DNA of 63,323 nt, the filler included, from Folioceros fuciformis (taxonomy: Eukaryota), in NCBI GenBank assembly GCA_049999805.1. It is 5 parts of 5 records of this genome, joined end to end, with 100 filler letters (N's around TTAATTAATTAA, not from the genome) between each part and the next. Parts side by side here need not be neighbours in the genome. Positions count along the whole stretch, not along the records: positions 1 to 27,415 come from JBNGIO010005799.1; 4 more parts are not named here. One strand, given 5' to 3'. Each line of letters starts with the position of its first letter. Position 1 is the first letter of the stretch. Positions 11,769 to 54,261 of the stretch are shown here, in pieces. The position numbers and the translations under genes are program-made. The notes under the pieces were generated by a model. That model was not told the DNA's origin, ran no database searches, and worked only from the letters and a program-made list of their open reading frames with translations.

Positions 11769-14700
11769 ATGGGGAACAAATTAGCCCGCACAACCCAGGC
11801 ATCGGCTTCGGAGTACTACCTGCAGGATCTGCCAACCACTTTGAATTTGGTGTTGAAGGAATCGCTGGGCAAAGGCCGCTTCCTTAAATCCATAGTTTGT
11901 GTTCATGATGAAGGGTGGCTTGTTGTCAAGGTCTACTTCAAGCGTGGCGAATTCCCCGATGTGAAGGTGATTGGCGGCAGTATTTGGTTCATATGAAGAA
12001 ATTCCCTGTTTCTGTCTGACCTCCACAGTATGGCAAGTTTTTTTCTAGCTGGTCAAGGATTTGCTTGCGTCTTTCATTCCTTCAGGCTCATGAACGGAAG
12101 CTGAAAGAAATTAAGGAGAAACTGAAGGACATCAAGCATTCACATGTTTGGCCCTTTCAGGTGACTTAGCTTGATCAGGTAGTATCCGCTTTCTCATTCC
12201 TTGCATCTTCTACTGAAATGTAAGCGTCCTGTGTGGCAGCATTGGATGGACACAGACAAGGCTGCGTACCTCATACGGCAATACTTCTACAGCAATCTCC
12301 ATGATCGCATGAGCACACGCCCTTTCCTGAGCATCATGGAAAAGAAATGGCTAGCATTTCAGGTTAAAGAAGATTTAGGCTGCCAGGATTCTAATGATGA
12401 GGGGGGTGAAGTGAATTTGTCCAGCTAGAGAGACTGCCTTCAGTCTTTGCAACATGGAAGAGTCCTGAATTTGCTCTCAGTTTCACTCTTGAAATTCTGA
12501 TGGAAGGGTTTTGATTGAGGATAGAGCATGGCGATCTGTCAAAGTCAGGGATTGTGCAAGATGCCAATTTGAATCTGTGGTTTTGCAGCTACTGCATGCA
12601 GTGAAGCAGAGCCATGAGCACAAAGTCTGCCACGGTGAGTCCTTTGCAAGTGGCTAGGCTTGTGTTTCAATAACGCTCCCTTTACCATTTACTTCTTGGT
12701 GCTGAGAATGGTTGTCCCGAGCAGGTGACATAAAATGTGAGAATGTCCTGGTGACGTCCTGGAACTGGGTTTACCTTGCGGACTATGCCTGCTTCAAGCC
12801 AACATATCTTCCAGCCGATAATCCTGCTGACTTTTCATTTTTCTTTGACACCGGTGGCAGCCGTCGCTGCTATCTTGCACCTGAGGTTAACTGTCCTTAT
12901 ATCTACCTACGTCTTAGATGTGAATTGAGAAGTTCGTAGCCCAGCCTTATACTTGAGCCAATTGTGCTTCTCGTCTTTGCAGCGATTTTGTGATCAGGTT
13001 CCGGTTGGCGATGGCCCTCTGCAACCTGCTATGGACGTGTTTGCACTTGGGTATCAACGTCTTGGTTCCTTCTGGTTTCCACTAGATAGTGTCGAAATGT
13101 CTGCACATGAGCAGCTAGTCATTTGCCAAAGATGCTCTTGTGATTTCTGATAGGGCACGTTAGCCAGGTATTTTTTTGTAGATCAAAAAACCTGATGGCA
13201 CTTATCTGTAATGGTTCTCCCGCTGTTGTGCATTTACAGGTGCGTAATTGCAGAACTCTTCCTTGAAGGTCAAGCTATTTTCACCCTTTCACAGCTCCTC
13301 ATGTATCGTAGGGGGGAATATGACCCAAGGCCTTCTCTGGAAAAGGTGAACTACAGCTTTTCTTGTGCTCGTGCTTTCTCAAGACTTGGGTGTGAATATA
13401 TGTCAGGTTGTGCAGAGCGACTGATTGGTGGGATAAATTGCTTCAGATTCCTGATTCTGGAATACGCGAGATGGCTTTGCACATGATACAGCAGAATCCA
13501 GAATCCCGTCTGTCGGCACATGAGTATCTGGAAACCTGGGCACCTACATTGTTCCCAAGCTATTTCTCACCACTTCTGCACAATTTCTTCTCTTGTATAG
13601 TTCCCCTGGACCCAGACACGAGGGTGAGTTCTCCGTCTTTCCAAAGCACATTTGTAACGCATCCGTGTCATGAAATGCTCCTCTATGTAGATGTCCTTGG
13701 AGCCCGTTTGATCACTTACAAAGCATGGACTTCAGCTGCCAAGTAGTTGAATCTATTAGTGCATCTTATGAACAGGTGGCAGTCACACAAGGTGCCTTCC
13801 CAGAAATTCGCAAGCAAATGTTAGCAGATGCAAGGCGAAAAGTGGAAAGGAAGCAAACTGGAGAGAGACAATCCAGGTTATTTACTGGTAGTCAGAATAT
13901 GCCCCAGGGGGCCAGCACGCTTTTGCAGAATCTAACCGTATGCGTGGTGCTGATGGCAGTGCACTTGGTCGGAGATATGGACGTTCGAAGACCATCTCAG
14001 GGTATTCCCGTGTGAGTCTGCAGTCAGAGATAAATGCACTGATGAGAATTGAATGGAGGGCCAGTGATGTGGGCCTGCCGTCTACAGATGTTACTTCTCA
14101 AGTCAGATCCTTCAAAGATGAGGATGGTGAACGGGATGATGTTCTGGATAAATTCAGTAAGCGAAGTCTGGGTAGGGCTAGGTCTGTAAACATAACACTC
14201 TCGAGTATCCCAACAAAAGGCTCAGAAGCAAAGGTCCCACTAGGTGTGATACGAAGCTTGGGGATTGTGGAAGAATCGTCTTCCCTGGATGGAGGCCACG
14301 TTAGCCTTGATGGCCAAGTACCGACCACCTCAGGATCCCAAGTTCGCATAAAGCCAGCATCACTTGCAATGGCAGATGCAGCCCTTGCAGCGGAGGAGGT
14401 TATAGTTGAGGAGGTGAATATGCGAGGTCTTGATCCTGTTCATCTGTGTTGACACTCTTGTGCAAATATTCACATGACTGTCGGGTCTAGTTCTCAACTG
14501 CCCTTACCTTAGAGTGTGCTTTATCATGTGCAGGTCTACGAGAATCAAGTTAGAGAGCCTGGTGGTACGTTTAGTGAGTGGCCGTTCTCATCTGGAGAGT
14601 CAAGTGAAAGTGTTGGGAGGGGTGCAGGCGGGCGGCAAAAGGGCGACATCACTCTTCCGTTGGAGAGTGGTTGGATGTGGGAGGGCGATTGGGAGGTTGA

Positions 14701-17700
14701 CTTAAATTGGCTAATGAATGGTACGAAGTGTATGTTTTTGCACTCCAGCAGCTGCTGCCTTGCAACGAACTCAGTTTAAGTCTTGTTTGACAAGTCTATT
14801 TTTTGCAGGTGTTGCAGTTGATAGGGAAGGGTGGAGATATCGAAAGGTGGTTGCAAAAGACCTGGAAAAGGGTATAATAGGTGATGTAGTCGCTGCACAA
14901 GGTGAGAAACAATCTCAACAAAAACTGGGATTGCGCCAAGGGCTTTCTCAAACTTGGACAGCTGCATGTACGCCTGACTGCACGTGGAGACGAAGGCGCT
15001 GGTTACGGAAACGTAGGAGGCGACTTCCCACTCCAGTGCAAGGTGCAATCAAAAGTGGGTCTATGCAAGTAGCAGGTGGAACCATGGATTCATCGGTGGT
15101 TGCAAAAAGTGTAGAGCAGGACTCCGAATCGAAAGTATTAAGGTGTGATGGCATGGTTCTTATTGCTTCCCTGTTATGCTCTTGCCTACGGAATGTTAGG
15201 CTTCCACAGGCACGGAGAGGGGCTGTTCAGTTGCTACAAGATGCCTCAGAGTTCTGTGATGATGATTGCAGACTGCAACAAATCATCCCATATGTTGCTG
15301 CATTGCTTTCTGATTCAGCAGCTATAGTACGGTGTGCTGCTCTACAGACCCTCTGTAATGTGCTGTCAAAGGTTTCAAGCTTTCCTCCAGGTGATGCAAA
15401 GCTTTTTCCGGAGTACATCCTTCCTCTTCTTTCCATGTTGCCAGATGATCCAGAAGAAAGTGTCCGCATAGCCTATTCAGATAACGTCAGTCTGATTGCA
15501 GAGACTGCTGACAGGTGTCTCAAAAACTCCCAGTATTTCAGTGATTTAGGAGGCCTAGACAGCCCGAGTCGTGCCTTTAGGGTCCATGCAAATGAGAGGC
15601 CACCTCTGCCCAGTGTTCAGCATACTGCCAGCAAAATTGAGAATGAGCTTTCTCACTTGCGTGAGGCAATAGCTCGAGTTATTCAAGAGTTGGTCATTGG
15701 GCAAAAGCAAACACCCACGATCAGGCGTGCACTCCTGACACACGTTGGGTCACTTTGCAAATTTTTTGGCCAGAAGCAGAGCAATGACTTCCTTCTCCCC
15801 ATACTGCCAGCCTTTTTGAATGATCGGGATGAGCAGCTCCGTTCTGCTTTCTTCGAGCATATAATTCATGTGTGCTTATTCATTGGCCAAATGAGTGTAG
15901 AGGCTTATCTGCTCCCTTACGTAGAACAGGCTCTGAGTGATGTTGAAGAGATTGTTGTTGTTAACTCCTTGAACTGCCTCGCTGCTTTATGTTGTCATAG
16001 AATGTTGCGGAAGCGTGTGTTGCTGGAAGCAGTGGAACGGGCAGCTCCACTCCTCTGTCATCCAAGCCAGTGGGTTCGGAAGGCAGCAATGACTTTCGTG
16101 GCTGCAACCAGCTGCAATTTGGATATAGCAGAAGCCTATTCCCTTTTATCTCCCATTCTATCTCCCTTCCTTCGAAGAGAACCTGCCTCATTATGCTCAG
16201 AGGAAGCTCTTATGCCTTGCTTGAAGCCGCCTATGTCAAGAGAGGACTTTAACAGGTTGTTAAGTGACATTATGTTATTAGAAAAGCCTTCTGATCAGCT
16301 GTGCACCAAAGTTGTGCATCAACGGAAAGGAAATTCTTCTGAGCAGCTCTGCACCAAAGTTGTCCAACAGCGAAAAGGTAGGCAGAGGTCATTGACGCAG
16401 AGCCAAGTCAAGCCACTGGAAAGAAGTCGGTTTGGGAAAGAGGCTGACATTACCTCGGCAACAGCAGACTCACGAGGTCTGAAGAATGTGGAATCCAAGC
16501 TGCCGTCCTCACCAGGGCGCACAAGTTGCTTTAGTGATGGAGTGCAAGGCTCTGAACCGGGTGATGGTGAAAAACTGAAAGCAATGGAAGGCTACATTCG
16601 CAACTTATCAAGCACTATGCAAACTAGAATGCACAATTGGGAGGTGGAAAATACGGAGAAGCTACAGAGTTCGGCTCTTGGCGGTCTGGGCACTGGAGTG
16701 GGAACAGGTTATTATTCACACTATGATGGTACCTCGGAAGGTATCCCCTTGTACTGGGTTTCCGTTAATGAGAAAAAGCAAGATGGCCCAAAGAAGCACG
16801 ATGGGCAAGCGGCTGTATTGGATGCGAGCCTCTCTAGTAATGAGGAATGGAGCCGAGTCTTTGGTGCACGTCAGGGTAATGTGCCTTATTTCATGACAGC
16901 TGTTGCGGCCCCACACATGGGTAGCTCCTTGGCTGTGGCTTCATCTCAATGGGCCACGATTGGAGCTACCCACTCTTCCATGTTGCCAGCAGATCCTTAC
17001 CAAAGTTCGGTTTCCATGACTGGATCTGTTTACAATGGAGGTCATTTCATGTATGATGTGACAAAGGACACTTACAGGAGAGAAAGGGATGGCAATGTGC
17101 TACACACATCAATTCAGGCTGTTCCTGTAGCATCTCTGGATTCTTTTGTGCAAAGTCAGAGTGGACCAAGTGCAGATGCTTTGGTTGATCAAGACCCAAC
17201 CACAGAGGTCCCTGGGGGAGGGGAACCCGAAGGGTCTAACGTGGATACCTCTTGGCGCCCAAAAGGAGTCCTGATCGCACACCTCCAAGAACATCAACGA
17301 GCGGTCAATGAAGTGGCTGTATCTAGTGATACTGTGTTTTTTCTCAGTGCATCAGATGATGGGACAGTGAAAGTTTGGGATTGCCGACGCCTGGAGAGGG
17401 ATGTTTCATTTAGGTCGAGACTTACATATTGCTGTAAAGCTGGGCGTGTGCTTCATGTGCAAACGGTTGGCAGTGACAATAAGGTAGCGGCTGCAACAAG
17501 TGATGGTCAGATTCATGTATTTAATGTAGATTATGTTGGTCGTGAGGGTAACAGTGGAGAAAAATACTCTGGCTTCTCGGAGATCAGGAAGCTAGAATCA
17601 CATGAGGGGCCAGTAACATCTTTGCAGAACTTTTGTGGGGAAGGCACCCAATTACTGCTGTACAGCACACTGAAAGATAATATTCACCTCTGGGACATGC

Positions 17701-18849
17701 GAAAACAGGTGGATGCTTGGTCATTGTGCGTGGAACCTGCACAAGGCTATGTTACAGCAACTGCACTTGACTCGAATTGTAACTGGCTTGTATCTGCAAC
17801 ATCGAGGGGCTTCCTGACTCTGTGGGACTTGAGATTCCTGATTCCAGTGAATACTTGGTGCCATCCTTCTGGATGCTTCATCAAGTGTATGTCACCCCTG
17901 CAGCCTTGGTCTTGGGATCCGTTAAAACCTTCTAGAAGTCCATGGGTGTACGTTGCAGCAGGACGGAACGAAGTGGCTTTATGGAATGCCGAAAACGGGA
18001 ATTGTAGTCAGGTGACTTGTCTCAGCCCAGTCTCGGAGCTTGTTTGTGAGGAAGAGCGTGACTGACTTCGTATATCATTCATTAGTCCGTGGGCAATTTT
18101 GTCTGTCAATCCAGTTCTTGAAAATTTGTGGGGTTGCAGGTGTTGCAGATGCAGGGAGACACAGCTGCTTCAGAGACACATGAGCTTCCTGCCGCTTTGA
18201 AAGCAAGTCGGTCCAGTACAGATGAAATCGCTAGTCCCAAAGAAAGGTACAAAGTTGAGGAGCTCATTGATCCGCCTCCTCAACTTCCTGGAGTTCGTGC
18301 ACTTCTGCCCCTTTCAGGTGGTACCGCGATCATATGTGGAGGGACAGATCTGCGGATTCGTCTATGGGATCGCCACAGGTACAGTCAAAGTCGTGGAAGC
18401 CGAAGGGTGATTATGAACCTGCACTTCCTGGTCCTTCCTTTTTCTGATTCTCCTGGTGTTGTGTAGGCCTGGGAAGAGCTACTGCATTTGTGGGCCAACA
18501 GTCAAGGGACCTACATCACCCGATTCTCAGGTGTACACTCCAAGGGACATCTCAGGTGTTCAAGTCGTTCAGGTGACTCATGTTATCTCTGTACACGATT
18601 ATGGTTACACTTCTTGGAGAGAAATTTTCAGCTGATCTCTCTCTATGTTGTCTTTCGTAGGAGCACCCTCCTAGGGATGGCAGCACCAGTACCAAATTGA
18701 AAAACTCATCGAAACCCAGCATTGTAGCGGCAGCAACAGATACTGCAGGGTGTCACCGCGACTGCATCACATCTCTTGCCTTGGCGCAGACCAATCAGCG
18801 GCTCCTCATCTCCAGCAGCAGAGATGGGGCAGTGAAAGTGTGGAAGTAG
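11769..18849 (+). CDS. VPS15: VPS15 / PIK3R4 class III PI3K regulatory subunit (pseudokinase, HEAT, WD40), ~15 exons, with an inserted DysF-like domain
   Basis: Myristoylation-type start [97 protein letters not shown] region [36 protein letters not shown]40 region [14 protein letters not shown]..; C-terminus [11 protein letters not shown] with TAG at 18847-18849. Confidence 0.96.
16288..16379 (+). repeat. 48-bp in-frame tandem duplication in the VPS15 linker
   Basis: [14 protein letters not shown] and [14 protein letters not shown]; copies start at 16288 and 16336. Confidence 0.85.
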
Positions 18850-19272: not shown

Positions 19273-19965
19273 GGTCTATCGCTGCTCAGGTGCTGCTCTT
19301 GCTCCTCCAACGCTGGTATTCTCGTTTGTCTAGTCGAGAGTGTGGTCGAACTCGGGGAGATGAGCTTTGCATCGATGAAGTCCGAGCTCCAATCAACAGG
19401 TTGCATACAGAACTTGTTGGGTGAGGATCACTCTGAAGTCTCTAACGCCTCCTTTGTCTGATACCAGGATATGGCAGATGAGGTCCCGCGTGTGGCCTGG
19501 GTGGTATTACCGTCTCACCTAACTTATGGCGCTTGGGCTTTAAAGATTCCGTCAGACCTGGGATCTAGATGTACATGAAGTTTGGGGAACGCAGTTGGCT
19601 GGCATCGCAGCTTAGATTGAGTGTTGGTAGTGTCTGTGAAGATCGGGCTGTGGACAACAATCTACCTGTCGACGCCCATTCTGTTCGGAAATGTAAATTG
19701 TTCAAGACGCCGCGAAGGAATCAGCTCCAGACCATTCCCCTGCCATGTCCGATTTTTTCCAAGACTGCAAAATGTCGTTGTCATCCACGGATTCGTTGGA
19801 AACAATCGCCTCACCAACGTCCGATGTTTCATGCACCCTGGTCATGGTGAAGACGTTCCCTCGAGACTAGAGTACATTGTGTTGCATTGTGTCCTCGTGT
19901 GCAGCAGGGGCACATTCGATTGCGCCGCAAAATCGGGAAGCCCTAACCTGCAAACGGCAACGGTC

Positions 19966-22395
19966 ATGTCCTCGATCGGTAGTGGGGCCTCAAAACAGGA
20001 CAAGCGGCCATTAATGAACGGAAATGAGCATGAGAAATCATGCAAGGCTGAGAGGTATTCCTGTATGGCGGAGTCCCAGGGAATGTCCACGTGGTTGATT
20101 GAGGAGGCTATCCGTGTGTCAGCCATGACTGCAGGCCCGGAGGCGAAGTGGTTGCATGACCTGGATCGGTTTGGTCTCCCCGCGTCCCAGACTGAGGTGG
20201 AGGGAGCTGTGGAGGACTTAGAGAAGCGGGGCGAGGAAATCACCTTGTGTGCACTCGTGAATTCTTTGCTGGATGCCCGCGCCTCCAGTCCCCCCTGCCA
20301 CTTTCCTTCGAGCCCACGGCATGCCACTTTGTCTTGCGAGCAGGAGGAAATGTGCTGTGCGGCAAGGGAGCAGAGCCAGAAGCTCGGCCTTGAAGGCGTC
20401 GACCTTGAAGAGGAAACGGACGGCGAGTCTTCGGGGGGGTTAGGGATAAGTGAGCAGGAGCCGGCAGGCGATGCTGGAGACTCGGAGTACGCTGCGGATG
20501 GTGGCACACGTTTTAGAAGTAACGAAGCAGGATGCTCGAAGCCAGCATGGTGGTGTGACCTCGCGTCGCTAGGGTTCTCTGAGGCCGAGGTGGAAAGCGC
20601 TGTTGAAAGCTTAGAGAATGCAGGGAGAGAAGTGACAGCAGAGGTTGTGGCGAACGTGATCTTGGAAAACCTTGGGGACCCTTGCGATGAAACTGCAGCT
20701 GCAGCTGTAGAGGAATCTGAACCTCATAGTGGCGAAGATGATCAGGGCGGGAGAAGTTGCGATATGGACGTGGACGTTAAGGATGTCGCTGACGATGCTA
20801 CTGGTGCACGTACTGGCGATTACCGCTTGGAGCAGCTGGTAGAATTGGGTTACGACTTCGACGTCGTCACCGTTGCAGTCAGCTACCATGCACTTGATGA
20901 CCCTGTGGAGAAAGTGGTGGACTGGCTGGATGCCTACTTACTGTCTGACACTCCGAGCAAGCCTAAAGCCGAGGGAGTGGACTTGGTTGTGGAGCAAGTG
21001 AAGAGCATGGTGCAGCTTAGCCCTCGTTTGGAAGACGCTATACGGAAGCATGACTGCAAAGACGTCACGGAAGCATTGGACCTGCAGAAAGCTTTGGAAT
21101 TGCAGGAACTAGTGGAAGACGATGGCCAGCCTAACGAGTCAGATACTTTTAATCGTCGGAGATGTGCATCTGCGCGTGACTGGGATCCGGACGTCATCGA
21201 TACAGCTGAGGATCTGGATTCCTATGACATGGGGCGAACAGGTCTTGGCCGGGGAGAAGAATGTAGCGTGATCAGAAAGCAAAGGAAAACGAAGCAACGC
21301 GGTGGTAGGTCTACTGTCTATACCCTGCAGAGGGAAGACTATTACTCTTTCGAAGAAGATTCGAGAACAGGGCATGGAGTTCCTGGTGGGCCTGTGATTC
21401 CTCGGACTTTGCCGGAAAGTTTAGCTAGACCTCCGTATTTCTACTTCGAGAATGTGGCATCGATGCCAAAGTTCGAATGGGACAAGATCTCCAGTGAGCT
21501 GTATGGCATCAAGCCAGAGTTTGTGGATGCTTTGCACTTCTCGGCTTGCAGAAGGGCACGAGGCTATGTCCATAACCTTCCAGTTGAGGGAAGGCAGTTA
21601 CTGATTCCTCAGCCTCCTATGACCATTCAAGAGCTATTTCCAGAAACTTCGAAGCATTGGCCTGCATGGGACCTCAGGAGAAAACTAAATTGCATAGATT
21701 CTAGATCAGCATGCCACACTGTTGTCGAGCCCATTGTCGAGTCCATCAAACAACACGGAGCTAGACTTGTGGTGGATGAGAACTTCCGGAAGGAGATGTT
21801 GATAGAACTGAAGAAATGGAATTTAGTTTGGACGGGACCAAGTCAAGTCTCTCCCATGAGTGCCGAAGAGATGGAGGTGGTTTTAGGGTACGACGTCAAT
21901 CATACCAGAGGTGTGGTGAACAAAACCGATCGATGGAAGTGCTTAGGAAGTTGTTTTCAGGTTAACACGGTTGCGTATCATCTCTCGGTATTGAAGCCCT
22001 TGTTCCCCCAAGGAATGAACGTCATCTCTTTATTTGCGGGGATAGGAGGTGCTGAGGTTGCGTTGCACAAGAATGGCATCCAGCTCAATGTGGTGGTAAG
22101 CATAGAATTGAACGATAAGGTTAGGCAGGTAGTTTCTAATTGGTGGCAAGTCACAGGTCAGAAGGGCCATCTGGTTCATCACATTCATGACGTGAAGGAT
22201 TTGACGAAGGATAAGCTAGTAGACCTTCAACTTAGATACGGAAAATTTGACCTTTTAATTGGTGGGAGCCCTTGCAACAATTTGTCAGGCAGCAACAGGG
22301 TGTCTCGAACAGGTTTGGCGGGTGAGCACTCCAGTTTGTTTTATGAATACAAGCGAATACTACACGACTTAAGGCTGCTTACAGGCCCTCCTTGA
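19966..22395 (+). CDS. DRM: Domains-rearranged DNA (cytosine-5) methyltransferase (DRM family), intronless, with N-terminal UBA-like repeats
   Basis: Circularly permuted motif order: PPYFYFENV (VI), RARGYVHNLP (VIII), LGSCFQVNTVAYHLSVLK (X), SLFAGIGGAEVAL (I), DLLIGGSPCNNLSG.NR (IV). UBA-like helical repeats (e.g. LASLGFSEAEVESAV, LVELGYDFDVVTVAV) lie upstream. The start codon is uncertain: the frame is open from 19621 and ATG 19966 is my choice. Confidence 0.93.
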   Translation: MSSIGSGASKQDKRPLMNGNEHEKSCKAERYSCMAESQGMSTWLIEEAIRVSAMTAGPEAKWLHDLDRFGLPASQTEVEGAVEDLEKRGEEITLCALVNSLLDARASSPPCHFPSSPRHATLSCEQEEMCCAAREQSQKLGLEGVDLEEETDGESSGGLGISEQEPAGDAGDSEYAADGGTRFRSNEAGCSKPAWWCDLASLGFSEAEVESAVESLENAGREVTAEVVANVILENLGDPCDETAAAAVEESEPHSGEDDQGGRSCDMDVDVKDVADDATGARTGDYRLEQLVELGYDFDVVTVAVSYHALDDPVEKVVDWLDAYLLSDTPSKPKAEGVDLVVEQVKSMVQLSPRLEDAIRKHDCKDVTEALDLQKALELQELVEDDGQPNESDTFNRRRCASARDWDPDVIDTAEDLDSYDMGRTGLGRGEECSVIRKQRKTKQRGGRSTVYTLQREDYYSFEEDSRTGHGVPGGPVIPRTLPESLARPPYFYFENVASMPKFEWDKISSELYGIKPEFVDALHFSACRRARGYVHNLPVEGRQLLIPQPPMTIQELFPETSKHWPAWDLRRKLNCIDSRSACHTVVEPIVESIKQHGARLVVDENFRKEMLIELKKWNLVWTGPSQVSPMSAEEMEVVLGYDVNHTRGVVNKTDRWKCLGSCFQVNTVAYHLSVLKPLFPQGMNVISLFAGIGGAEVALHKNGIQLNVVVSIELNDKVRQVVSNWWQVTGQKGHLVHHIHDVKDLTKDKLVDLQLRYGKFDLLIGGSPCNNLSGSNRVSRTGLAGEHSSLFYEYKRILHDLRLLTGPP

Positions 22396-23090: not shown

Positions 23091-26000
23091 TGTTAGAAAA
23101 CGGTGAATCCCAAGATAAGCCTCAACTCAGTACTTCTAGATTGGCAGCCCATGCGTATATATGTAGCCTTCAAGCATGTCTATAACTCGATAAAGGGTAA
23201 ACATTACCTCGATCGTAGTTTTATTCTAACCCTAGCATCTTGCATCTTGCTAAACTTCTTATGCTTCTTTCAAGCTAAGCATGTAGTAAGAAATCAACGG
23301 GCATGTCCTCAACTTCTTATGCTTCTTTCAAGCTAAGCATGTAGTAAGAAATCAACGGGCATGTCCTCAATAGGACAATAAACTAAAGCTATTTCCTTGG
23401 ACTTGACTTTCTCCCTGATCAAGTGATGTCTAACTTCGATGTGCTTAGTGCTTAGTTCTTGCGTGAAAAATAGCACTCTTAGCCAAATAAATATAGCCCT
23501 CATTGTCGTTGAATATGGGCGTTGCACCTAGTTGCTTGAACCCTATTTCTTCGAGCAATCGCCCAAGCCACATAACTTCCACGGTTGCAGCTGAGGCTTG
23601 AGGCTGCCATATACTCAGTCTCTTTAGAAGATAGTGTCATTGTAGGCTAGCGCCAACTACTCCATGAAATGGCTCCCCCAAATAACATGAAGGCATACCC
23701 TGTCGGAGATCTGCAAGTGTCGACATTTCCGGCCCAATCTACGTCGCAAAATCCCACAATACGGGCTTCTTCGTCCTCCTTCTTCCGATAGGTCAATGTC
23801 CAATGTTTTGTGCCCTGCAAGTATCTGAGTACTCTCTTGACGGCTTGATAATGGTGAGGTTGGGGGTTGACCAGGAATTGGCTCACAACTCCCACTGCCT
23901 ATGTGATGTCTAGCCTGGTGCTTATTGCCAAGTAAGTAAGGCAGCCAACAGCACACTGGTAGAGATTCTTATCTACTTATTCCTTCACATTGGAATCCAC
24001 CTCTTGTGATAGCTTCTCATTGTGGATCATTGGCGTCTGCATTGGTTTGCAATCCTACATCTCAAAACGCTCTAGTATGGTCCACACATATGTCTGCTGA
24101 CTTAGGGAGATTGCCCTATTGGTCCTATCTCTATTGACTTTTATTCCTATGAAATAGTTCAGCTCCCCAAGGTCTCGTACAACGAAGCTTTCTCGAAGGC
24201 CTCGCTTTGCTAAGGTCAGAAGCTCCTGATCATTGCTAACGATGATTAAATCATCCATATATATGGCAATGATGACGACAGAAGCTCCCACTCGCTTCAT
24301 GTAAATATTCCAATCAACATTGGTCTTCTTGAAATCTTTAGACTAGAAATGATCATCAAGTTTATAATACCAAGTAAGGGTAGATTGCTTAAGATCGTAA
24401 ATGGCCTTTTGCAACTTACATACTCTCGCTCTCACATCCAGGTACCACGTAGCCTTCAGGTTGCTCCATGTAGATCTCTTCATTCATATCTCCATTTAGA
24501 AAAGCGGTTTGGACATCCGTATGATGTAACTCCATATCCAAAGCAGCGGCGAAAGCAAGGAGTGGTCAGATAGAGGCTATCTTTGCAACAAGAGAGAAGG
24601 TATTTGTGTAGTCCATACCTGAAATCTGTGTATACCCTTGCCCCACTAGTCTTGCCTTGTAGCGCTCTATGCTGTCATCGGCCTTCCGCTTGATCTTGAA
24701 AGTCCACTTCGATCTTATGCACTTCCTTCCAAGAGGTAGAGGAGTAATAATCCATGTTTTGTTGGTAATGAGGGAGTTATACTCACTGTCCACAGCTTCT
24801 CTCCATTCTTTTGCCTTTGGGCCTGCGAATGCCTCCGTCAAGCTGTGGGGTTCTCCAACATCTGCAAAACACACCGCCTCACTGACACATCCATTAAAAG
24901 ATTCTATGAGCTTTTGTGACGGCTTTCGCAACCTGGTAGATCTGCGTAATGCCGATTGCGATTCTATAACTCGATAGTCTTCTTCTACTTCTTTAGTAAC
25001 ATTAGGAGTTTTTCTCTCTCCTTCCTTGATGTCACATTCTACACCTGCGGCTAGGGGTAAGACTCCAACTACGTCTTCAACCACAATGATGTCAGGAGTG
25101 TCTCTCCCTCCCCCCTATGTCGCAAGGTTAAGAAGAGTCGACAGGCATCGGAGCAGAAATCACACCGTAGTCTTCAACAGACCTAGAGGAAGCCAACAAG
25201 GGAGGAGATGAAGCTCCCACTTCAGTTGTAGCCTCGGCAACCTCTTGAAAAACAACATCCCTGCTAAAAATGACCTTCTTCGTAGTNNNNNNNNNNNNNN
25301 NNNNNNNNNNNNNNNNNNNNNNNNNNNNNNNNNNNNNNNNNNNNNNNNNNNNNNNNNNNNNNNNNNNNNNNNNNNNNNNNNNNNNNGACACTTCGTACCA
25401 TTAGGATCCCATTTGGTCTGGCTCGCCTTTGGAACACGAGCATAGACCACGGAACCAAAAACCCTAAAATGTCGAACATCAGGTTTGATACCAGACCATG
25501 CTTCCTCTGGCGTCATATCGGGTACGGCCTTTGTCAAAACCCTATTCAACACGTAGGTTTTCGTCATGACAACCTCACCCCAAAAATTGACCTACAGCCA
25601 CTGAGAAACAACATGCACTTGGCTGCTTCCACAAGGCTCCGTATCTTCCGCTTTGCAACTCCATTTTGCTGCAGAGTGTGCGGAATCTTGAGTTGCCGTT
25701 AAATGCCGTTCTCCTTACAAAAGACCTGGAACTGAGAAAAAACATATTCACCTACATTATTGCTCCTAAGCGTCTTAAGGTGTTCACCATGTTCGATCTC
25801 GACCGAAGTCTTCCAGTCCTTGAAAGTCTGGAACACTTGGGATTTCTCCTTCAAAAGATAAGTCCACATCTTTCGTGTAAAATCGTTGACAAAGATGAGC
25901 ATGTAGCGGTTCCCACCCTGGATAGGGTTCCTCATGGGCCCACTTACGTCAGTGTGGACTAATTCCAATGCCTTTTGCGTGCAATGTGCCTCATCAACTT

Positions 26001-27415: not shown

Positions 27416-27515
27416 NNNNNNNNNNNNNNNNNNNNNNNNNNNNNNNNNNNNNNNNNNNNTTAATTAATTAANNNNNNNNNNNNNNNNNNNNNNNNNNNNN
27501 NNNNNNNNNNNNNNN
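27416..27515. other. Artificial contig linker (44N-TTAATTAATTAA-44N)
   Basis: The same 100-nt structure recurs four times; TTAATTAATTAA gives stops in all six frames. Confidence 0.95.
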
Positions 27516-28136: not shown

Positions 28137-30655
28137 TAGGTACATACAATACATGGTCAAGGGTGAACACAGTGTTATTGGCAAGTCAAAATGAACAGGT
28201 GCCAGTTCCAAGTATCATGAGGCCAATATGAGTAAGCTCATCACCTAGCAGCACTCTCTCAACTACACTAGCTGATGTGAAGTTACTCATTAAAGTCTTG
28301 TCCTTGCATATGTGTGAGGTAGCTCCTGAATCGAGGTACCAACTGTCATAGTCACTAATGGAAGTGGAGAGACAAACAATCATAACCACAGGGTGCTTAG
28401 AAGTGCTGGCCGAAGTAGGCCAATCCTTGGTGACGGAGTGTGCCTCAGCCTGTTTGAAGAGCTTCTCGGCTTTCCGTGGTTCACCAGATTCCTTCTTTCT
28501 GCATTCCCTTTCCCAGTGACCCTGAGCACCACACCAATTGCAAGAACCTAATCGCTTGTGCTGTCCTGTCTTCGCAATCCCAAAGGCAGGAAGGTTTTTA
28601 TTTTTTTGTGGTTTTCCTTTTGATGCATACAAGACTTTGTCTGTCTTTGTGTGTCCCGGGCCATGATGAGTAGCCTTGCTTTGCTCTTCTTGAAATAGTG
28701 CACCAACTACATCTGTGAAACTGATGGTGCTTGGTCGCCTTGCAGTTATAGCCGCTCCTACATGACGGAGAGAAGCTCCGTAGCTAGAAACGAAGGGCTG
28801 ATAACTTGCAGGCAGGCTTGTTAAGAGTTGAGCAACAGCATCAAGTTCACTCGTGGTGGAATCGAGTGAAATCAGCTGAGAGCGGAGATGATTGAACTTG
28901 CCAACAAAGGTTGCTGCCTTCTCGCCTTCTCTCATTCTCAAGGAGAACAGCTCTCCACTAACAACACATAAGGTAAGAATGTTCTTCACCTCATATGTTT
29001 GTGAGAGCTGATTCCATATCTCAGATGCCTTAGTCAGATAAGCAACATCTGGAACCAGCACTTCATCAAGACCACTTATCAGAAAGGCACGGGGAATGTT
29101 GTTTGCGTTGCCCCATCGTTCCTTTTCTGCATCAGTCGCCATTAGGCCTGGTGGAGGCAGAGCTCCGAATACCACACTCCAACATTTCGCACCTCGAGAG
29201 CAGAACGCATCCTAACACTCCAAACCTCGTATTTAGTCCCATTAAAGCGATCCTTCTCCTTGAAATCGGTTGTGTATGCAGGTTGCATGAAAGCAGTTGG
29301 TGGGAAACTAGGTGGCGAGGTGTTCGCTATCTCTGGGTGCCAGGCGTGTCAGGAGGAGGTGGCGGTGATGAGGATGTAGACGGTGTGGAGCTCATTGCTA
29401 AGGATGACCGTCATTCCTTATTTCATTTTTTTGAGTAGAAAAGGGGAACCTCTACTCTCCAAACACACTGTTGGTTGGAAAGTCAGCCGGCTCGCGACAA
29501 GGAAAGTAAGCTCTCCTCCTTCCAACCTATTCACCGCCTGGGGTTACATGTTTTTGAAACGCTACAGAGTAGAACTTGCAGGACTCGTCATTCATGACGA
29601 TACATATCTGAAGTCACAACCCCCTTCACACGGTTACAAATCTGTGTATGCAGAGGGCGCCACCCCTTACAGGATCTGACTCTTGCAAATCGTCTGTGCT
29701 TAGGTGGCTGGATGAAACGCTGCGCATGTTATCGGCAAGCAACGGTTGGCAGCTCCCAGTTTTGCAGAAGAAATCTAGAGAATCCTAGCACGGGCTTCCA
29801 CTGCCTGAAGAATTATACAGATCTTAGAAATTTGAAGATCGCGAGCACCCGCTTTGCGATCTTGCTTTATTTCCTCCTTCTGTCTGCTGAAGCAGGAAGG
29901 CACTTGTAGCTCATTTGACGAATGATTGTGCCCAAGAAGATCTGTAGGCAAGGAAGGAAAAAATTGCTTAGATAGACAACAACGTTCGCAACGTTCCACT
30001 GATCTGGTAGGGTTCAATTTCCTTCATGATGAAAGAACCTCGTGCTGGCAAGTGCTAAGCAAATTTTGGCTTTTTGTTGATGCAAGGTTCCGCCCAACTG
30101 CAACAGATGTCTTGGTGGGCTGAAAAGAGTCAACGGCCTTTCTATAAGCTTCGTTTCTGACGCGAGCCTGCCAGCATGCTCTGCGTCTCGGCATCTTCAA
30201 GGACGTAACCCTTTCGTAGCCAGTTTAATCGCAGCGGAAATTAATGCGGTTTCTTTGTTGATTATCAAAATTCTAAAATAGTGTAGGCGGTGAAGCCTTG
30301 CTGGGCACAGAAACCAGAAGCCATCAAGGATGATGACTACTGGGTCCTGAGCCCAGTTGAAGGTTTCGCCATTGGCATCTGCAAGTTTACAACAAAGAAA
30401 CTCTTTGTGATTTAGTTAGATCAGAACCCAATTGGGCTCTAATATCATGACAAAAGTCTTCATTTTGTGTTGTAAGCGTAGGAGAGGTGTAGTCCTAGCA
30501 ACACAACAAGTAGACTAAAATAATAAAATGTATGTAACAAAAATGTATATTATATGTGTCAATTGGGCTTGGTGCCCCTTTACTCTATAAGTGTAAGTTA
30601 ATATGAAACACTATGTACTTAGCATATAATTAATCAACGATTACTTATCCTAACA
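28137..30655 (-). mobile_element. 5' part of a Ty1/Copia element: LTR, degenerate tRNA-Met PBS, ~1 kb leader, gag-protease
   Basis: LTR 30448-30655 (minus strand TGTTAG..TTGTCA). PBS TGATATTAGAGCCC at 30447-30434 resembles TGGTATCAGAGC. Gag zinc knuckle CNWCGAQGHWEREC; protease WYLDSGATSHIC. Confidence 0.85.
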
Positions 30656-33482: not shown

Positions 33483-33582
33483 NNNNNNNNNNNNNNNNNN
33501 NNNNNNNNNNNNNNNNNNNNNNNNNNTTAATTAATTAANNNNNNNNNNNNNNNNNNNNNNNNNNNNNNNNNNNNNNNNNNNN
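33483..33582. other. Artificial contig linker
   Basis: 44N-TTAATTAATTAA-44N. Confidence 0.95.
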
Positions 33583-42395: not shown

Positions 42396-43658
42396 ATGGA
42401 CGTCCTGCAGGAGGAGGATTTGGTCTTAGTAGCGAGCTAGAGGAAGGCCACTTCTACTTCCCTGGGAGAGCATCCTGCAGCACAAGCACAGTCAGCTGCA
42501 GGAGAGGACTTGAGAAAAATATGCATCTGCGCTGGCCTCTCAGAGGAGGAGAAAGTGCAGGTCATGGACTACGCGCGTACGGAGGAGGCTCAGGAGTTCC
42601 GTGCTGAGGGTGGGATCCGGAAGAGCCGCTGGGAAGAAGGCAGCTGGGTTCGGGAAGCTGAGAAGGGTGCGTCAGAGGTGAAGAATCGGAAGAACGATGC
42701 GGCCTCAGAAGTACCGGTGAAGGCAGGAGGAAAGGGATGGGAGGAGCAAGCACCTCAGAATCGGGAGAGGAAGCAGCAGGACGGAAGGGGGGAGGCCGGC
42801 TCGGAGGCATGTGGTTGGAATTTGGTGGTCAAGTCTGGAAATGGGACATTCTTTGACTCCCGTCCGCGCTCTCCCTCCGCTTGTGTGGATGCCGGTTTGA
42901 GTTGGGGAGAGGGGTATTCGAACTTGGGGTACTTTGAAAGAGTGGTGCGCGTGGAGGCTGGCGGGTGGCTCCTGCAGGTCAGGGTGGCGTATACAGCGGC
43001 AGCAGTGGAGGAATGGCTCAGCAAATGCACCGCAGAGGACAAACTGTTCGGCTTCGATCTGAAATGGCGACCCGACAGCCTCAGCGGGGATGACAACAAG
43101 GCAGCCGTGCTGCAGCTTTCACTGGCTTCCCGATGCCTTGTGGTGCAGCTCCTCTTCATAGACCGCATTCCTTCTTCCCTTGTGGAGCTGCTGGCTGACC
43201 CACAAGTGAAACTCGGGGGAGTGGGAATCAAGGTCGATTCTCAGAAGCTGCTTGTAGACCACGGGTTGAGGTGCCGCGGCGAGGTGGACCTGGCTGTGTA
43301 TGCCGCACAAGTGCTGAACCAGAACAGGATGTGTCAGGCGGGACTCTCCACACTCTCCCAGTCCATCCTTGGCCTGCCTCACAGGACCCGCAAGGCACTA
43401 TCGTGCAGCAATTGGGAAGTGGAGGGCTTGAGCTTCTCCCAAATCCGGTACGCGGCCAGCGATGCCTGGATCTCATACTCGCTGCTTGTCGCTCTACACA
43501 ATGTGGAAGCCCAAGGCCAAGCCCGCCTGGGGCGTGAAGGCCACCCCACTCAGCCACATGTTCAGCCATTCCTGTTGAGTATGGAGGAACGAATTCGCGA
43601 CATGGAAGACGTGGTTGCATTCCTCAAACAGAGAGCAGCACGAAACCACCGCTCTTGA
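42396..43658 (+). pseudogene. Werner-syndrome-like (WEX) DEDDy 3'-5' exonuclease, intronless, probably disabled
   Basis: Exo I FGFDLKWRP (consensus DxEW), KAAVLQL..CLVVQL, Exo II GVGIKVDSQKL, Exo III SNWE...LSFSQIRYAASDAW. The ATG at 42396, homologous to the paralog start, is followed by an in-frame TAG at 42438-42440. ATG 42564 could give a shorter product. Confidence 0.75.
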
Positions 43659-46418: not shown

Positions 46419-46518
46419 NNNNNNNNNNNNNNNNNNNNNNNNNNNNNNNNNNNNNNNNNNNNTTAATTAATTAANNNNNNNNNNNNNNNNNNNNNNNNNN
46501 NNNNNNNNNNNNNNNNNN
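46419..46518. other. Artificial contig linker
   Basis: 44N-TTAATTAATTAA-44N. Confidence 0.95.
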
Positions 46519-49667: not shown

Positions 49668-52600
49668 TACCTCATGCCCATGAGTGTGAGAGCTTATGCT
49701 AATTGCTCCGAAGAGAGCCCCTTGGTAAGAACATATGCAGGGTTCTGACTTGTGTGAACTTTGACAAGTTGTACCCTCTTGTCTTCCAACACCTCTCGAA
49801 TGAAGTGATACTTCACTTCCACATGTTTGGTCTTCGCATGAAACACTGGATTCTTCGCCAATTGGATAGCACTCTGGCTATCGCAATGCAACACTGGCAG
49901 CTTAACCTTGATTCCCAAATCTCCCACTAGACGAGCAAGCCACATGGCTTCCTTGCATGCCTCAGTCGCTGCAACATACTCGGCCTCTGTAGTAGATAGC
50001 ATTATGCACGATTGCAAACTCGATCGCCATGAGACTGCCCCTCCAGTGCACATGAAGACATAACCTGATGTGGACCTCCTTTTGTCCATATCCCCTGCAT
50101 AATCAGCATTCGTATATCCCACGACAAATGCATCTTCACTACCAAAACATATGCACAAAGCTTTTGTACCATTCAAGTACTTCATAACTCCTTTCACTGC
50201 CTCCCAATGCTTCCTACCAGGGTTTGACATAAACCTGCTAACCACTCCCACTGCAAATGCAATGTTAGGACGTGTAGCAATCATTGCATACATCAAACTC
50301 TCCACAGCTGATGAGTATGAAACCTTCTCCATTTCAGCTTTGTGCTCCGCAAAGCTTGGGCAATCTTTGCTCGAAAGTTTCATATATGGAGGCAACAGAG
50401 TACTCAATACCTTCCCGTTCTCCATATTGAAACATTGAAGCACCTTGTTAATGTATTCAGTCTGAGACAAGTAAAGCAAATGCATCTATTTGTCTCGACG
50501 AATACGCATGCCAAGAATATGGCTTGCCTCTCCCAAGCTTGTCATGTCAAAGCGACCATTCAAGTTTGACTTCAACGCTGAAATCTCATCACTGTTAGTC
50601 CCAGCAATTAGCATATCATCCACATAGAGGACCAAAATGAGCAAGCTTGCATCCTTAGCTTGCTTCGTATAGAGGCAATGATCCTCATCGCTACGTTTGT
50701 AGCCTTGAGAAAGCATAAACGAGTGGAATTTGAAGTACCACTCCCGGGCTGCTTGCTTCAAACCATAAAGGCTCTTCTTTAACCTGCACACCAGATTCTC
50801 TTTGCCTTTCTCAATGAAACCCTCTAGTTGCTGCATGTATACCTCTTCCTGGAGATCACCATGTAGAAATGCCGACTTCACATCCATCTGGACAAGTTCC
50901 ATGTGGTGCCTCGCAACCAGACCAAAAACACATCGCAAGGTGGTCATTTTGACAACTGGTGAGAAAATCTCATAAAAGTCAATACCTTGCTATTGCTTAA
51001 AACCCTTCGCAACCAATCGTGCCTTGTACTGGGGTTTGCCATAATGGGGTATGTCCTTCATCTTATACACCTACATTTGCATGGCAACGCCTTCTTGCCC
51101 GTAGGCAACCGAACCAACTCCCAAGTTTGGTTCTTACGAAGCAAATCCATCTGCGACTACATCGCCTTCTCCCACTTGTCCTTGTTAGTCACTGCCATGG
51201 CCTCTTGATAACAAGAGGGCTCGCCACAATCTGTCAGCATGACATAATCAAGAGATGCAACATACCTGTCAGGAGGACGTAAAATCCTTCCTGACCTACG
51301 AAGCACTGGCGTCTCGACCGGAGCTGGTTGCACTCTCTCCTCTTGCACAAGTGGAGGAACTTGTTCTTGCACATCACGACGTTCCACCTGCGTAGGACAG
51401 TCAAATCCATCTTCTTGAAAGACCACCCGTCGCACCTCCACAGTTGGAGTAGGCTTCTTGTGCATCTTGGTCTCATTGAAGAACACGTCATTACTGCGAA
51501 CCATCCGCTTGGCTTTTGGATCCCATAGACGGTATCCCCTCTCACTAGATTCACCATAGCCAAGAAAAATACATTTCTTGGAGTTGGGTGCCAACTTGTC
51601 CCGAAACTCCTTCGGAACATGGTAGTACGCCTCGCAGCCAAAACACTCGTAGATGCTTGTATAACAGCTTCTTTCCAGACCACATCTCCTTTGGAACCTG
51701 TTCATCCACAGCCCTATAAGGAGATTTGTTAATAAGATGCACCGCAGTAGCCACTGCTTCTGCCCAAAATTCATTAGGCAATCCAGAGTTTGACAACAAA
51801 CTACGCATCCTGTCCTGGATGGTCCTGTTCATCCGTTCGGCCACACCATTATGGGGAGGAGTATACGGCACAGTCAATTCTCTCTTGATTCCCTTGGAAT
51901 CACAGAATGACTGGAAAGCCTTCGAGACATACTCTCCCCCATTGTCTATCCTCAGACACTTTAGCCGGAGGCCAGACTGATTCACCACAAGGGTGACGAA
52001 TTTCTGAAACACTATTAGAACATCATCCTTTTTCCTCAAAGGATAAACCCACACCTTGCGTGAGAAATCATCAATGAAAGTGACAAAATAAGATGCACTG
52101 TCTAACGATACAGTGGAAATAGGTCCACATACGTCAAGAGGTTTACTTTTGTGTTTACCTCTTGCTCCATGTGGTGACTTCGTCTATTTCCCATACAGAG
52201 AGTGCTTACACACGGAAAAATCGGAGAAGTCAAAAGCAGGGACGTAACCAAAATGAGATAGTATCTTCAATCCTTTTTGAGACATATGTCCTAATCGACT
52301 ATGCCACATCGAAACACTTGGTTGTTCCGTTACACAAATCACATGATCCTTGACAGTGGTTACCTGAAGTGAGTACAAAGTGCCACACTTCGATCCACGA
52401 GCTAACACAAGAGAACCTTTGGAGATCTTCCAAGAACGATCTCCAAACCAACAATGGTAGCCAGCGTCATCCAACTGCCCTGCGCTAATCATGCTTTTGG
52501 CCAACTTCGGAACATGCCTAACATCCTTCAGTATGAATGAAGATCCATTGTCGAACTTCAGCTGCACATCATCAACGCCTGCAATCTCGCATGCGTAGTT

Positions 52601-54161
52601 ATTTCCAAGTCGTACACATCCTTTCCTAGTAGCACCATATGTGCTAAACCACTCCCTATGCGGAGTAACATGGAAAGATGCTCCAGAGTCAATTATCCAA
52701 TTAGAGAATAAGTGACTCTCCACATCTGTCAATTGTGCAGAATCGAAGGAAGAAGAGATAAGAACATCTCCATCGTCAACAGAATTCACCTCGTTAGGCT
52801 TGGATTTGCCTTGTTGTCGCTCTACTGCTTCTCCTTGCCTTCGTCCTTCTTGAACTTCTCTCAGTCCCTTCTGATGTGACCCTTCTTGTGACAATGGTAA
52901 CACTCAACATTGTTACGACTACGAGACTTACTACGGGAACGACTTCGCTCCTTGTACTTCCCCTTTGAAGTGGACCTTCCTCTCACCATGAGGGCATTGG
53001 AACCTTTCGAAGGTTCCATATTCTTCCTGTTCACCTCCTCTGTTAATAGGCTACCTTCTACATTTACAACGGTAAGACCATTGGCAGGAGCGGAATTACT
53101 CAGAGCTGTACGAAAGGTGTCCCAGCTCTCTGGTAATGTGACCAACAGAAACATAACTCTCACGGAATCTGGAAGCGAGATACCTTGAGATGAGAGCTAG
53201 CTGAAAATGGTATTGAACTCATTCAGATGATCGGACATCCTCGTCCCTTCCTTCATCTTCAAGTCCACCAGCTGTTTTAACCAGTACACCTGAGAAGCCG
53301 CACTTTGCTTCTCGTACATGTCACATAACTTCTGCCATAGCTCGTAGCTTGTGGTCTTGTCTTTCACGTTGAAGTAGACCGACTTCGACAATGTTAGTTT
53401 GGTGGTAGACCTAGCAAGCTCATTTAGGTCCTGCCACTCATCCTGAGTCATGCTAACAGGTTTCACTCCTAGCGACTTTATCGGCTTGATCTGCTTCTTC
53501 AGGTCTAGAACATTATACATTTGTTGTTTCGAGAACGGGAAGTTAGTACCATCTAACTTCTCAATATTGAACATGACGTTTTCTAAGGACGCCATGTTTC
53601 AAAAACGATGCAAATCAAGCAAAATGCTAGTTAGAAACTGTCGAAATGTAATGTAGATTCTGTTACCCTCACTCTCGTTTTGAATCGGCTGTCCACAAGT
53701 CGACTAGACAGGCCTAAATCATCCGACTAAGATGTCGCCGCCTCGTGGCCGGGATTCAGCTAGCTTGAGCTCGCGTTGTTCGCACCCCGATGCCCACGCT
53801 CGCGTGGCCCGCGCTTGTGTCTCTCTCGTCACTCGCGGTGTCCGTCGTCCGGCGTTCGCGACACTCTTTGGCCCCGTGGTTCGTTGGCCTGAACGCGTCG
53901 TGGCGCCGATGGCATGGCCAACGGCGTCTGCTTAGGCATGGCACCCGCGGCGCTTGTCAGACGCAGCGCCTGCGCCCCGGACGTCCACGGCCCGTGCTTC
54001 GGGCGTCTAGGCCTGGCGCGGCCAAGCGTCCCTGCCTCTAGCGCCCGCTGCGCCTGGCGGGCGGGTCTGGCCTCTTCAGCTGAGCTAGGCATCCTGCAGG
54101 CCGGGTCGGGCGCCCCGCGGGCTGGCGCCTGCCGCTCCTGGCGGAGCATGCCAGCCGGGGC
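49668..54161 (-). mobile_element. Near full-length decayed Ty1/Copia element (Tnt1-like) with a GC-rich 5' leader; LTRs not visible
   Basis: Gag MASLENVMFNIEKLDGTNF.. from 53595, CYHCHKKGHIRRDC, WIIDSGASFH, WHSRLGHMS, integrase LRIDNGGEY..PYTPPHNGVAERMNRT, RT QMDVKSAFLHG..LYGLKQA..YVDDML, RNaseH STTEAEY..FHAKTKHVEVKYH. Confidence 0.94.
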
Positions 54162-54261
54162 NNNNNNNNNNNNNNNNNNNNNNNNNNNNNNNNNNNNNNN
54201 NNNNNTTAATTAATTAANNNNNNNNNNNNNNNNNNNNNNNNNNNNNNNNNNNNNNNNNNNN
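54162..54261. other. Artificial contig linker
   Basis: 44N-TTAATTAATTAA-44N. Confidence 0.95.

Follow-up and report, generated by a model that had tools for sequence, protein, structure and literature searches.

VPS15 of the plant Folioceros fuciformis carries a genuine DysF (peroxin/ferlin) domain, which lies between its pseudokinase and its helical/HEAT solenoid; the type of domain is an established one, and its host is new and suggestive as to function. The gene is located in a stretch of 63,323 nucleotides (nt), filler included, taken from NCBI GenBank assembly GCA_049999805.1 and referred to here, at its full length, as the window. VPS15 is ordinarily described as a protein with kinase, HEAT and WD40 regions, and both VPS34 complexes, which act in autophagy initiation and in endosome and vacuole traffic, have it as their invariant scaffold. 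A sequence-only reading of the same DNA had proposed a DysF-like insert between the pseudokinase and the HEAT repeats of VPS15, encoded by exons that join in frame, and had taken it to be a lineage-specific lipid-sensing module that could direct the VPS34 complex to particular or damaged membranes; the gene assignment, the position, the joining of the exons and the nature of the insert are all borne out below, the lineage specificity is contradicted, and the lipid-sensing role is a hypothesis. That the identity, the expression and the antiquity of the domain hold jointly is, in our judgement, close to certain.

Gene structure and transcript support

The assembled VPS15 model has a reading frame without internal stop, and all 14 of its introns are of the GT-AG type. 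The features of the gene that bear on the domain are as follows.

11769-18849, + strand: VPS15 gene, 15 exons, 1810 amino acids (aa); ATG at 11769, end of the stop codon at 18849
13960-14413, + strand: exon 10; end of the low-complexity linker, R-x-K-x-A-x-x-A-M-A helix and first DysF beta-strand, EEVIVEE (14393-14413)
14414-14533, + strand: intron of 120 nt, GT..AG; seen in the sequence and spliced out of the contigs of all four runs
14534-14720, + strand: exon 11, 187 nt; N-terminal half of DysF, with VYENQ, a variable loop and LP-x3-GWxWxGDWEVD
14721-14808, + strand: intron of 88 nt, GT..AG, phase 1; interrupts the DysF domain, codon split 1+2
14809-15029, + strand: first part of exon 12; C-terminal half of DysF, with DREGWRY (fourth stacking Trp), a longer loop, the tip motif and the final strand
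15147-18011, + strand: remainder of exon 12; helical solenoid from aa 679, second linker and start of the WD40 propeller

The sequence reads AEEVIVEE at 14390-14413 and continues with GTGAAT, exon 11 has VYENQ at its start, and GTACGA stands directly after position 14720; both introns have CAG as their last letters, at 14533 and 14808. The LP-x3-GWxWxGDWEVD segment of exon 11 supplies three of the stacking Trp residues of the domain (see below). In the exon 12 part, the tip motif W-x3-CTPDC is followed by the final strand W-RRRR-W-x-R-K-RRRR, where nine basic residues are grouped around one Trp in a run that ends at 15023. Since the 187 nt of exon 11 are not a multiple of three, skipping of this exon alone would shift the frame.

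Contigs covering the gene were found in four sequencing runs, the RNA nature of which is presumed from their labels. Run X1 yielded a contig of 9410 nt that has no difference from the window and lacks the introns, and runs X2, X6 and X17, which represent two other organisms, yielded contigs of 5.7-8.5 kb that differ at ~7% of the positions of the largest exon. In all four runs, and hence in three organisms, single contigs of 5.7-9.4 kb span the kinase exons, both DysF junctions and the WD40 exons. The joints 14413 to 14534 (cut +2) and 14720 to 14809 (cut +1), both at GT..AG borders, are present in each of the four, so that exon 14534-14720 is included throughout and the exons ending at 14413, spanning 14534-14720 and starting at 14809 are joined in frame as the sequence predicts. 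Because contigs without introns at GT..AG borders are the expected product of spliced RNA, we read these runs as transcript evidence. The NCBI models of Physcomitrium VPS15 include the same DysF segment. Thus, the DysF exons belong to the mature VPS15 messenger RNA (mRNA).

Two further observations concern the linkers of the gene. In X1, an 83-nt GT..AG intron at 13877-13959 is spliced from the disordered linker upstream of the domain; the X2, X6 and X17 contigs are continuous over 13775-14411 and stay in frame there through the insertion of 1 nt near 13895-13898. The difference looks as if close relatives had gained or lost an intron (intronisation). In the second linker, between the solenoid and the WD40 propeller, a ~15-residue motif ending in QLCTKVV-x-QRKG is tandemly duplicated (~16280-16385, aa ~1058-1090).

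Identity of the gene and position of the insert

The assignment of the gene to VPS15 is supported by sequence alignment, domain searches and phylogeny. In a tblastn search, residues 1-1772 of the Physcomitrium VPS15 protein P0001 are matched in order along the gene, except for a gap at 366-405, and the kinase exons are 42-80% identical to the Pkinase region of P0001. The protein starts with MGNK and therefore has Gly2 in a myristoylation-type context. Pfam searches with 14811-18062 matched VPS15-like_hel (6e-25), WD40 (1.2e-13) and HEAT, and two single kinase exons, which are too short alone, gave no Pfam match. A maximum-likelihood analysis of 24 VPS15 proteins places the window protein inside the embryophyte group, which has a Shimodaira-Hasegawa-like approximate likelihood ratio test (SH-aLRT) value of 100; there it forms a lone branch outside the sampled moss, liverwort, lycophyte, fern and seed-plant clades, a position that a hornwort might be expected to take.

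The order of parts found along the protein is N-terminal MG, pseudokinase, long linker, DysF, helical/HEAT solenoid and WD40 propeller. Canonical VPS15/PIK3R4 proteins of yeast, human and Arabidopsis have the same MG start, pseudokinase, VPS15-like helical domain and WD40 region in the same order, but they have a short or disordered linker at the place where the Folioceros protein has the ~145-residue DysF domain preceded by ~150 linker residues.

The insertion site could be defined by landmarks on both of its sides, which confirm a location between the pseudokinase and the HEAT repeats. VPS15 proteins without DysF from liverworts, ferns and Selaginella have a helix, R-[VL]-K-A-A-A-V-x-M-A, some tens of residues ahead of the first HEAT helix, and the helix motif R-x-K-x-A-x-x-A-M-A persists in VPS15 lacking the domain. 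The DysF domain of the window protein, and likewise that of mosses and of Diphasiastrum, is situated exactly between this conserved helix and the first HEAT helix.

Sequence and fold of the DysF domain

The DysF segment comprises ~145 residues and is enclosed in a hidden Markov model (HMM) envelope of aa 485-639, which starts at ~14357. An HMM built from 14 DysF domains, none of them from VPS15, scored the spliced window protein at 73.8 bits. The 171 residues concerned, when shuffled 2000 times, reached 10.0 bits at most, which excludes a chance match. The converse search used a profile (A1) made from VPS15 inserts only, namely those of two Physcomitrium, one Sphagnum and one Diphasiastrum protein and the two window exons. 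Against 177,635 PDB sequences, this profile gave seven matches at an expectation value (E) of at most 10, the top four of which are all DysF proteins: the N-terminal DysF of TECPR1 (PDB identifier 8p5p; 5.9e-6), the inner DysF of dysferlin (PDB identifier 4cah; 2.3e-5) and two full-length dysferlins (1.6e-3 and 1.7e-3). The others are myoferlin (PDB identifier 2k2o; 1.3) and two unrelated chains (0.09 and 0.93).

When A1 was run against 1.84 billion representative sequences, 43 proteins were retrieved at E<=0.001. A Pfam scan of 19 of these 43 found nine VPS15-type proteins, two TECPR1-like proteins (Hyd_WA, Tectonin and Pex24p), three proteins with Pex24p only, one with Pex24p and a VPS13 adaptor-binding domain, one ankyrin protein and three without a Pfam family, among which P0127 has a precomputed VPS15-helical match. 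As to other hosts of the domain, P0161 is a fragment that has a Pex24p-type DysF along with a VPS13 adaptor-binding domain, and P0142 has ankyrin repeats and a C-terminal part that resembles DysF.

The residues that hold the fold together are also present. According to the accessible text on the crystal structure of the TECPR1 domain, the fold is held by a stack of Trp 116, 118, 122 and 138 with Arg 159, 161, 165 and 167 (PMC10476172). All eight have counterparts in the window protein when mapped via HMMER alignments, and they fall on its GWxWxxxW, EGW and R-x-R-x-W-x-R-x-R segments. In a 28-row DysF alignment (A2), the columns of at least 90% identity include four Trp and one Arg.

The fold was predicted with AlphaFold2 from the A2 alignment, which includes bona fide DysF rows, for the insert of the Physcomitrium orthologue, which is 51% identical to the window domain and is not the window's own sequence; the model has a mean predicted local distance difference test (pLDDT) value of 80.1 and a predicted template-modelling score (pTM) of 0.67. 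It has long first and last strands (18-30 and 143-156). A Foldseek search with this model against the PDB returned eleven top matches (ranks 1-13, two of which are omitted as further chains of entries already listed), and all of them contain DysF, being dysferlin, myoferlin or TECPR1 structures whose E values lie between 8.8e-6 and 5.9e-3; the first match beyond them has E=3.9. The target-normalised template-modelling (TM) score is 0.60-0.65 for the three isolated DysF domains. The predicted structure of the orthologous insert is thus in agreement with known DysF structures, including those of TECPR1 and myoferlin.

Several results pull in the other direction. Exon 11 alone matches the Pfam family Pex24p with E=0.024 and 14.1 bits (profile positions 251-316), the Physcomitrium paralogue P0002 scores 26.6 bits against Pex24p (PF06398) where the gathering cut-off is 26.8, and Pex24p is absent among the 25 best Pfam families for P0001. 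The exon 12 part of the domain gave no Pfam match by itself, and the upstream linker likewise matched no family. A first AlphaFold model, made from a six-row alignment, reached a pLDDT of 46.9 and was not used for the fold search, and the good model is subject to the two limits stated with it, that is, the orthologue's sequence and the DysF rows in its alignment. With these points taken into account, we consider the best explanation as a whole to be probable; in it, the VPS15 DysF is predicted to be a correctly folded, constitutively spliced domain.

Comparison with known DysF proteins

The N-terminal DysF of TECPR1, which senses sphingomyelin on damaged endomembranes and is the best PDB match by sequence, shares the Trp/Arg stack with the window domain and has a target-normalised TM score of 0.65. 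It is likewise a single, non-nested DysF in a protein of the autophagy pathway, but its host is an ATG5-ATG12 adaptor, whereas the host here is a PI3-kinase scaffold. The loop before the last strand is ~35 residues longer in the window domain than in TECPR1, and more generally it is ~35-40 residues longer in the moss, clubmoss and window DysF than in compact DysF domains.

By fold, the top matches are the inner DysF domains of dysferlin and myoferlin (PDB identifiers 4cah and 2k2o, and full-length cryo-electron microscopy structures), of which 4cah has E=8.8e-6 and a target-normalised TM score of 0.65. The ferlin and window domains have in common the motifs [VF]-[FY]-E-N-Q, W-x-W, D-x-x-G-W-x-Y and R-R-R-R-W-x-R. 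In ferlins, which are multi-C2 membrane-fusion proteins of animals, one DysF domain encloses another, whereas VPS15 has one DysF only.

The Pex30/Pex24 type, represented by the C-terminal part of PF06398, is the sole Pfam family matched by the segment (profile positions 231-335/358), at a score just under the gathering threshold. Proteins of this type are reticulon-like membrane proteins of the endoplasmic reticulum (ER) and act at ER contact sites, whereas VPS15 is a soluble myristoylated scaffold. The DysF of Pex30 binds phosphatidic acid, according to the accessible text of two reports (PMC12101077, PMC12101078). The last strand is strongly basic by net charge in all the DysF types compared; it sets the VPS15 type apart from none of them and therefore singles out no ligand.

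Distribution and evolutionary history

Among 120 VPS15 relatives, the DysF HMM scored above shuffles in eight (P0001-P0007 and P0014). In the remaining 112, which include liverworts, ferns, Selaginella, gymnosperms and angiosperms, this test detected no DysF, and none of the seed-plant proteins of the set was above shuffles. A regular-expression scan for the motifs had flagged three of the 120 and missed Sphagnum and Diphasiastrum; it is superseded by the HMM test. The carriers comprise mosses (both paralogues of Physcomitrium patens and one paralogue of Sphagnum species), the lycophyte Diphasiastrum complanatum, the early streptophyte alga Chlorokybus atmophyticus and the chlorophytes Tetraselmis striata, Volvox reticuliferus and Sanguina aurantia. 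The insert is also present in further VPS15-type proteins and in the two close relatives represented by the X2, X6 and X17 contigs. These counts are no census, and word-index protein searches with the insert gave three and seven proteins.

The inserts of the carriers resemble one another beyond the general DysF pattern. They have in common three VPS15-specific motifs, E-E-V-x-E-x-Q-x-R-E-x-x-G-x-F, K-E-D-V-x-L-P-L-E-G-G-W and W-T-x-x-C-x-x-x-C-x-W-R-R-R-R-W-x-R-K-R-R-R, and in a 13-row alignment the columns of at least 90% identity include five Trp and five Arg. The fold-defining Trp and Arg residues and the VPS15-specific motifs are maintained from chlorophytes to land plants. Between the window and the close relative sampled in X2, 11 of 188 positions are different in DysF exon 11, and 74 of 637 are so in the preceding linker exon.

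The tree of 24 VPS15 proteins agrees with the species tree: mosses, liverworts, lycophytes, ferns and seed plants form supported clades, and the algal DysF-bearing proteins are placed outside the embryophytes. The fewest state changes that explain the presence and absence of the domain on this tree are three. Under the usual land-plant phylogeny, four losses would be counted, in liverworts, Selaginella, euphyllophytes and one Sphagnum paralogue. The flanks of the insertion site are very similar in the Sphagnum paralogues P0005, which has DysF, and P0009, which lacks it, and the state of P0009 appears to reflect either a recent deletion after duplication or the skipping of the exons in the gene model. 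An ancient pair of paralogues, one with and one without DysF, was considered and rejected, since the Sphagnum protein that lacks DysF falls among the other Sphagnum sequences in the tree. We also rejected a DysF remnant in angiosperm linkers (Elaeis and Tasmannia, 96% query cover), which have none of the motifs and score below shuffles.

The common insertion site, the shared VPS15-specific motifs and the species-like tree together suggest that the domain is ancestral to green plants and has been lost repeatedly. The simplest reading of these comparisons is thus that DysF would be an ancestral feature of green-lineage VPS15 and not a recent acquisition.

Possible function and alternative explanations

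We propose that the DysF finger, with its Trp/Arg-stacked core, exposed tip loop and very basic last strand, may give VPS15, next to its N-myristoylated pseudokinase, a further means of contacting membranes or recognising lipids. Much as DysF serves TECPR1 through sphingomyelin and Pex30 through phosphatidic acid, the finger would assist the VPS34 complex in docking on particular membranes or in adopting its orientation there, and from its place right after the pseudokinase it could bias where and when VPS34 makes phosphatidylinositol 3-phosphate (PI3P). In the human class III phosphatidylinositol 3-kinase complex 1 (PI3KC3-C1), according to the accessible text of a preprint, the VPS15 pseudokinase sequesters the N-myristate when inactive and releases it for membrane docking when active (bioRxiv 10.1101/2023.09.28.559894). 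By analogy with the DysF domains of these other proteins, a membrane or lipid role of the VPS15 DysF may be given about even chances. A more specific proposal, which we put forward tentatively and hold to be somewhat unlikely, is that the ancestral green-lineage PI3KC3 carried a lipid-reading DysF that coupled PI3P synthesis to the state of the membrane, the ligand being perhaps an anionic lipid or a plant sphingolipid that becomes exposed when endomembranes are stressed or damaged. Such a system would parallel TECPR1, which links sphingomyelin exposure to ATG8 lipidation in animals, and liverworts, ferns and seed plants would later have given up the domain as other factors took over its task.

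Against these proposals, it should be noted that the presence of a DysF domain is not equal to that of a lipid sensor and that several plant lineages do without the domain, which makes it dispensable for the core function of VPS15. Plants are not known to make sphingomyelin. The N-terminal DysF of TECPR1 binds this lipid through residues at the tip of its 'finger', and the inner DysF of ferlins showed no recruitment in the same assay, as far as the accessible text of the two reports goes (PMC10476172; PMC10476171). Of the twelve residues needed for TECPR1 recruitment (R76, W77, C84, L88, L89, S90, I142, D143, K152, K153, W154 and C157), one is identical in the window protein by a hand mapping that is approximate, the loops being hard to align: S90 is identical, L88 is replaced by Phe, and R76, W77, K152, K153 and W154, of which the two Trp are exposed, are replaced by Val, Arg, Cys, Thr and Pro, respectively. 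By this mapping, the residue set of a TECPR1-type sphingomyelin sensor is not conserved in the window protein, and sphingomyelin is unlikely as the ligand of the VPS15 DysF.

The unconserved lipid-site residues of TECPR1 can be read in favour of a DysF that is real but serves as a protein-protein or intramolecular regulatory module, packing on the pseudokinase or on the VPS34 kinase domain or recruiting a partner of the green lineage. The insert adjoins the pseudokinase, whose contacts with VPS34 gate activity according to the accessible text of the preprint on the human complex (bioRxiv 10.1101/2023.09.28.559894). However, the two DysF domains with a defined biochemical role in the literature covered, those of TECPR1 and Pex30, are both lipid binders, the insert is positioned beside the myristoylated, membrane-facing end of VPS15, and no partner is known. 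We regard such a module as unlikely, and it is the best of the alternatives to a membrane-directed DysF.

Next to be considered is a tolerated relic, that is, a folded spacer in a disordered linker that has no specific function at present and is on its way to being lost. The losses on the gene tree, of which there are at least three, would fit such a fate, as would the Sphagnum paralogue that is without DysF while its close sister copy retains it, and the extra ~35-40-residue loop in the moss, clubmoss and window sequences. The conservation of the fold-defining Trp and Arg residues and of the VPS15-specific motifs from chlorophytes to land plants speaks against it, as does the lower divergence of exon 11 relative to the linker exon between close relatives, and we consider a relic to be decidedly improbable.

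A recent insertion of DysF into the VPS15 of this plant group, which is what the sequence-only reading had implied, would account for the failure to detect the domain in 112 of the 120 VPS15 relatives, but it is contradicted by inserts with the same site, flanking helix and VPS15-specific motifs in chlorophyte and streptophyte algae, mosses and the lycophyte Diphasiastrum, together with a VPS15 gene tree that follows the species tree, and it is very improbable indeed. A mis-assembly, a chimeric model or exons outside the mature VPS15 mRNA can hardly be credited, since, although the runs are only presumed to be RNA, intron-free single contigs cross both junctions in all four of them and the NCBI Physcomitrium models contain the same segment.

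Novelty and implications

We found no description of a DysF domain in VPS15 in the literature searched, supplementary files not being covered. In the accessible text of a paper on autophagy in the moss Physcomitrium that mentions VPS15, there is nothing on VPS15 domains, its supplementary gene tables likewise not being covered (PMC9807217). In the protein collection, one Physcomitrium VPS15 paralogue bears PF06398 as an automatically assigned Pfam label, and the architecture is therefore visible to databases. The absence of DysF from all sampled seed-plant VPS15 may explain the lack of papers.

If the proposed membrane-directed role holds, a DysF, from a family with known lipid binders, beside a membrane-docking pseudokinase would represent a novel mode of targeting or gating PI3P synthesis. 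That the domain has been conserved between chlorophyte algae, mosses and clubmosses speaks for a real function. In VPS15, the poorly understood DysF fold would gain a third biochemical context. What has replaced the domain can be sought through its repeated losses, which constitute a natural experiment. Since Physcomitrium patens has two DysF-bearing paralogues and is genetically tractable, the role of DysF in the PI3-kinase complex is directly testable there.

Other features of the window

The window contains 482 N in total, none of them in the VPS15 gene. They occur as four pairs of runs of 44 N, the members of each pair being separated by 12 bases (27416-27515, 33483-33582, 46419-46518 and 54162-54261, all outside the gene), one run of 100 N at 25287 and three runs of 10 N. 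Downstream of VPS15, a 924-aa open frame on the + strand (19621-22395) matches the C-5 cytosine DNA methylase family PF00145 at its C-terminus (E=4e-14); its long acidic N-terminal part resembles that of a DRM-type plant de novo methyltransferase. Two fragments of Copia-type long terminal repeat (LTR) retrotransposons are located on the - strand, one with gag and a Pol beta-barrel (28189-29211) and the other with a Pol beta-barrel and GAG-pre-integrase (52187-52903). An open frame on the + strand at 42441-43655 has a 3'-5' exonuclease domain (PF01612, E=9e-16).

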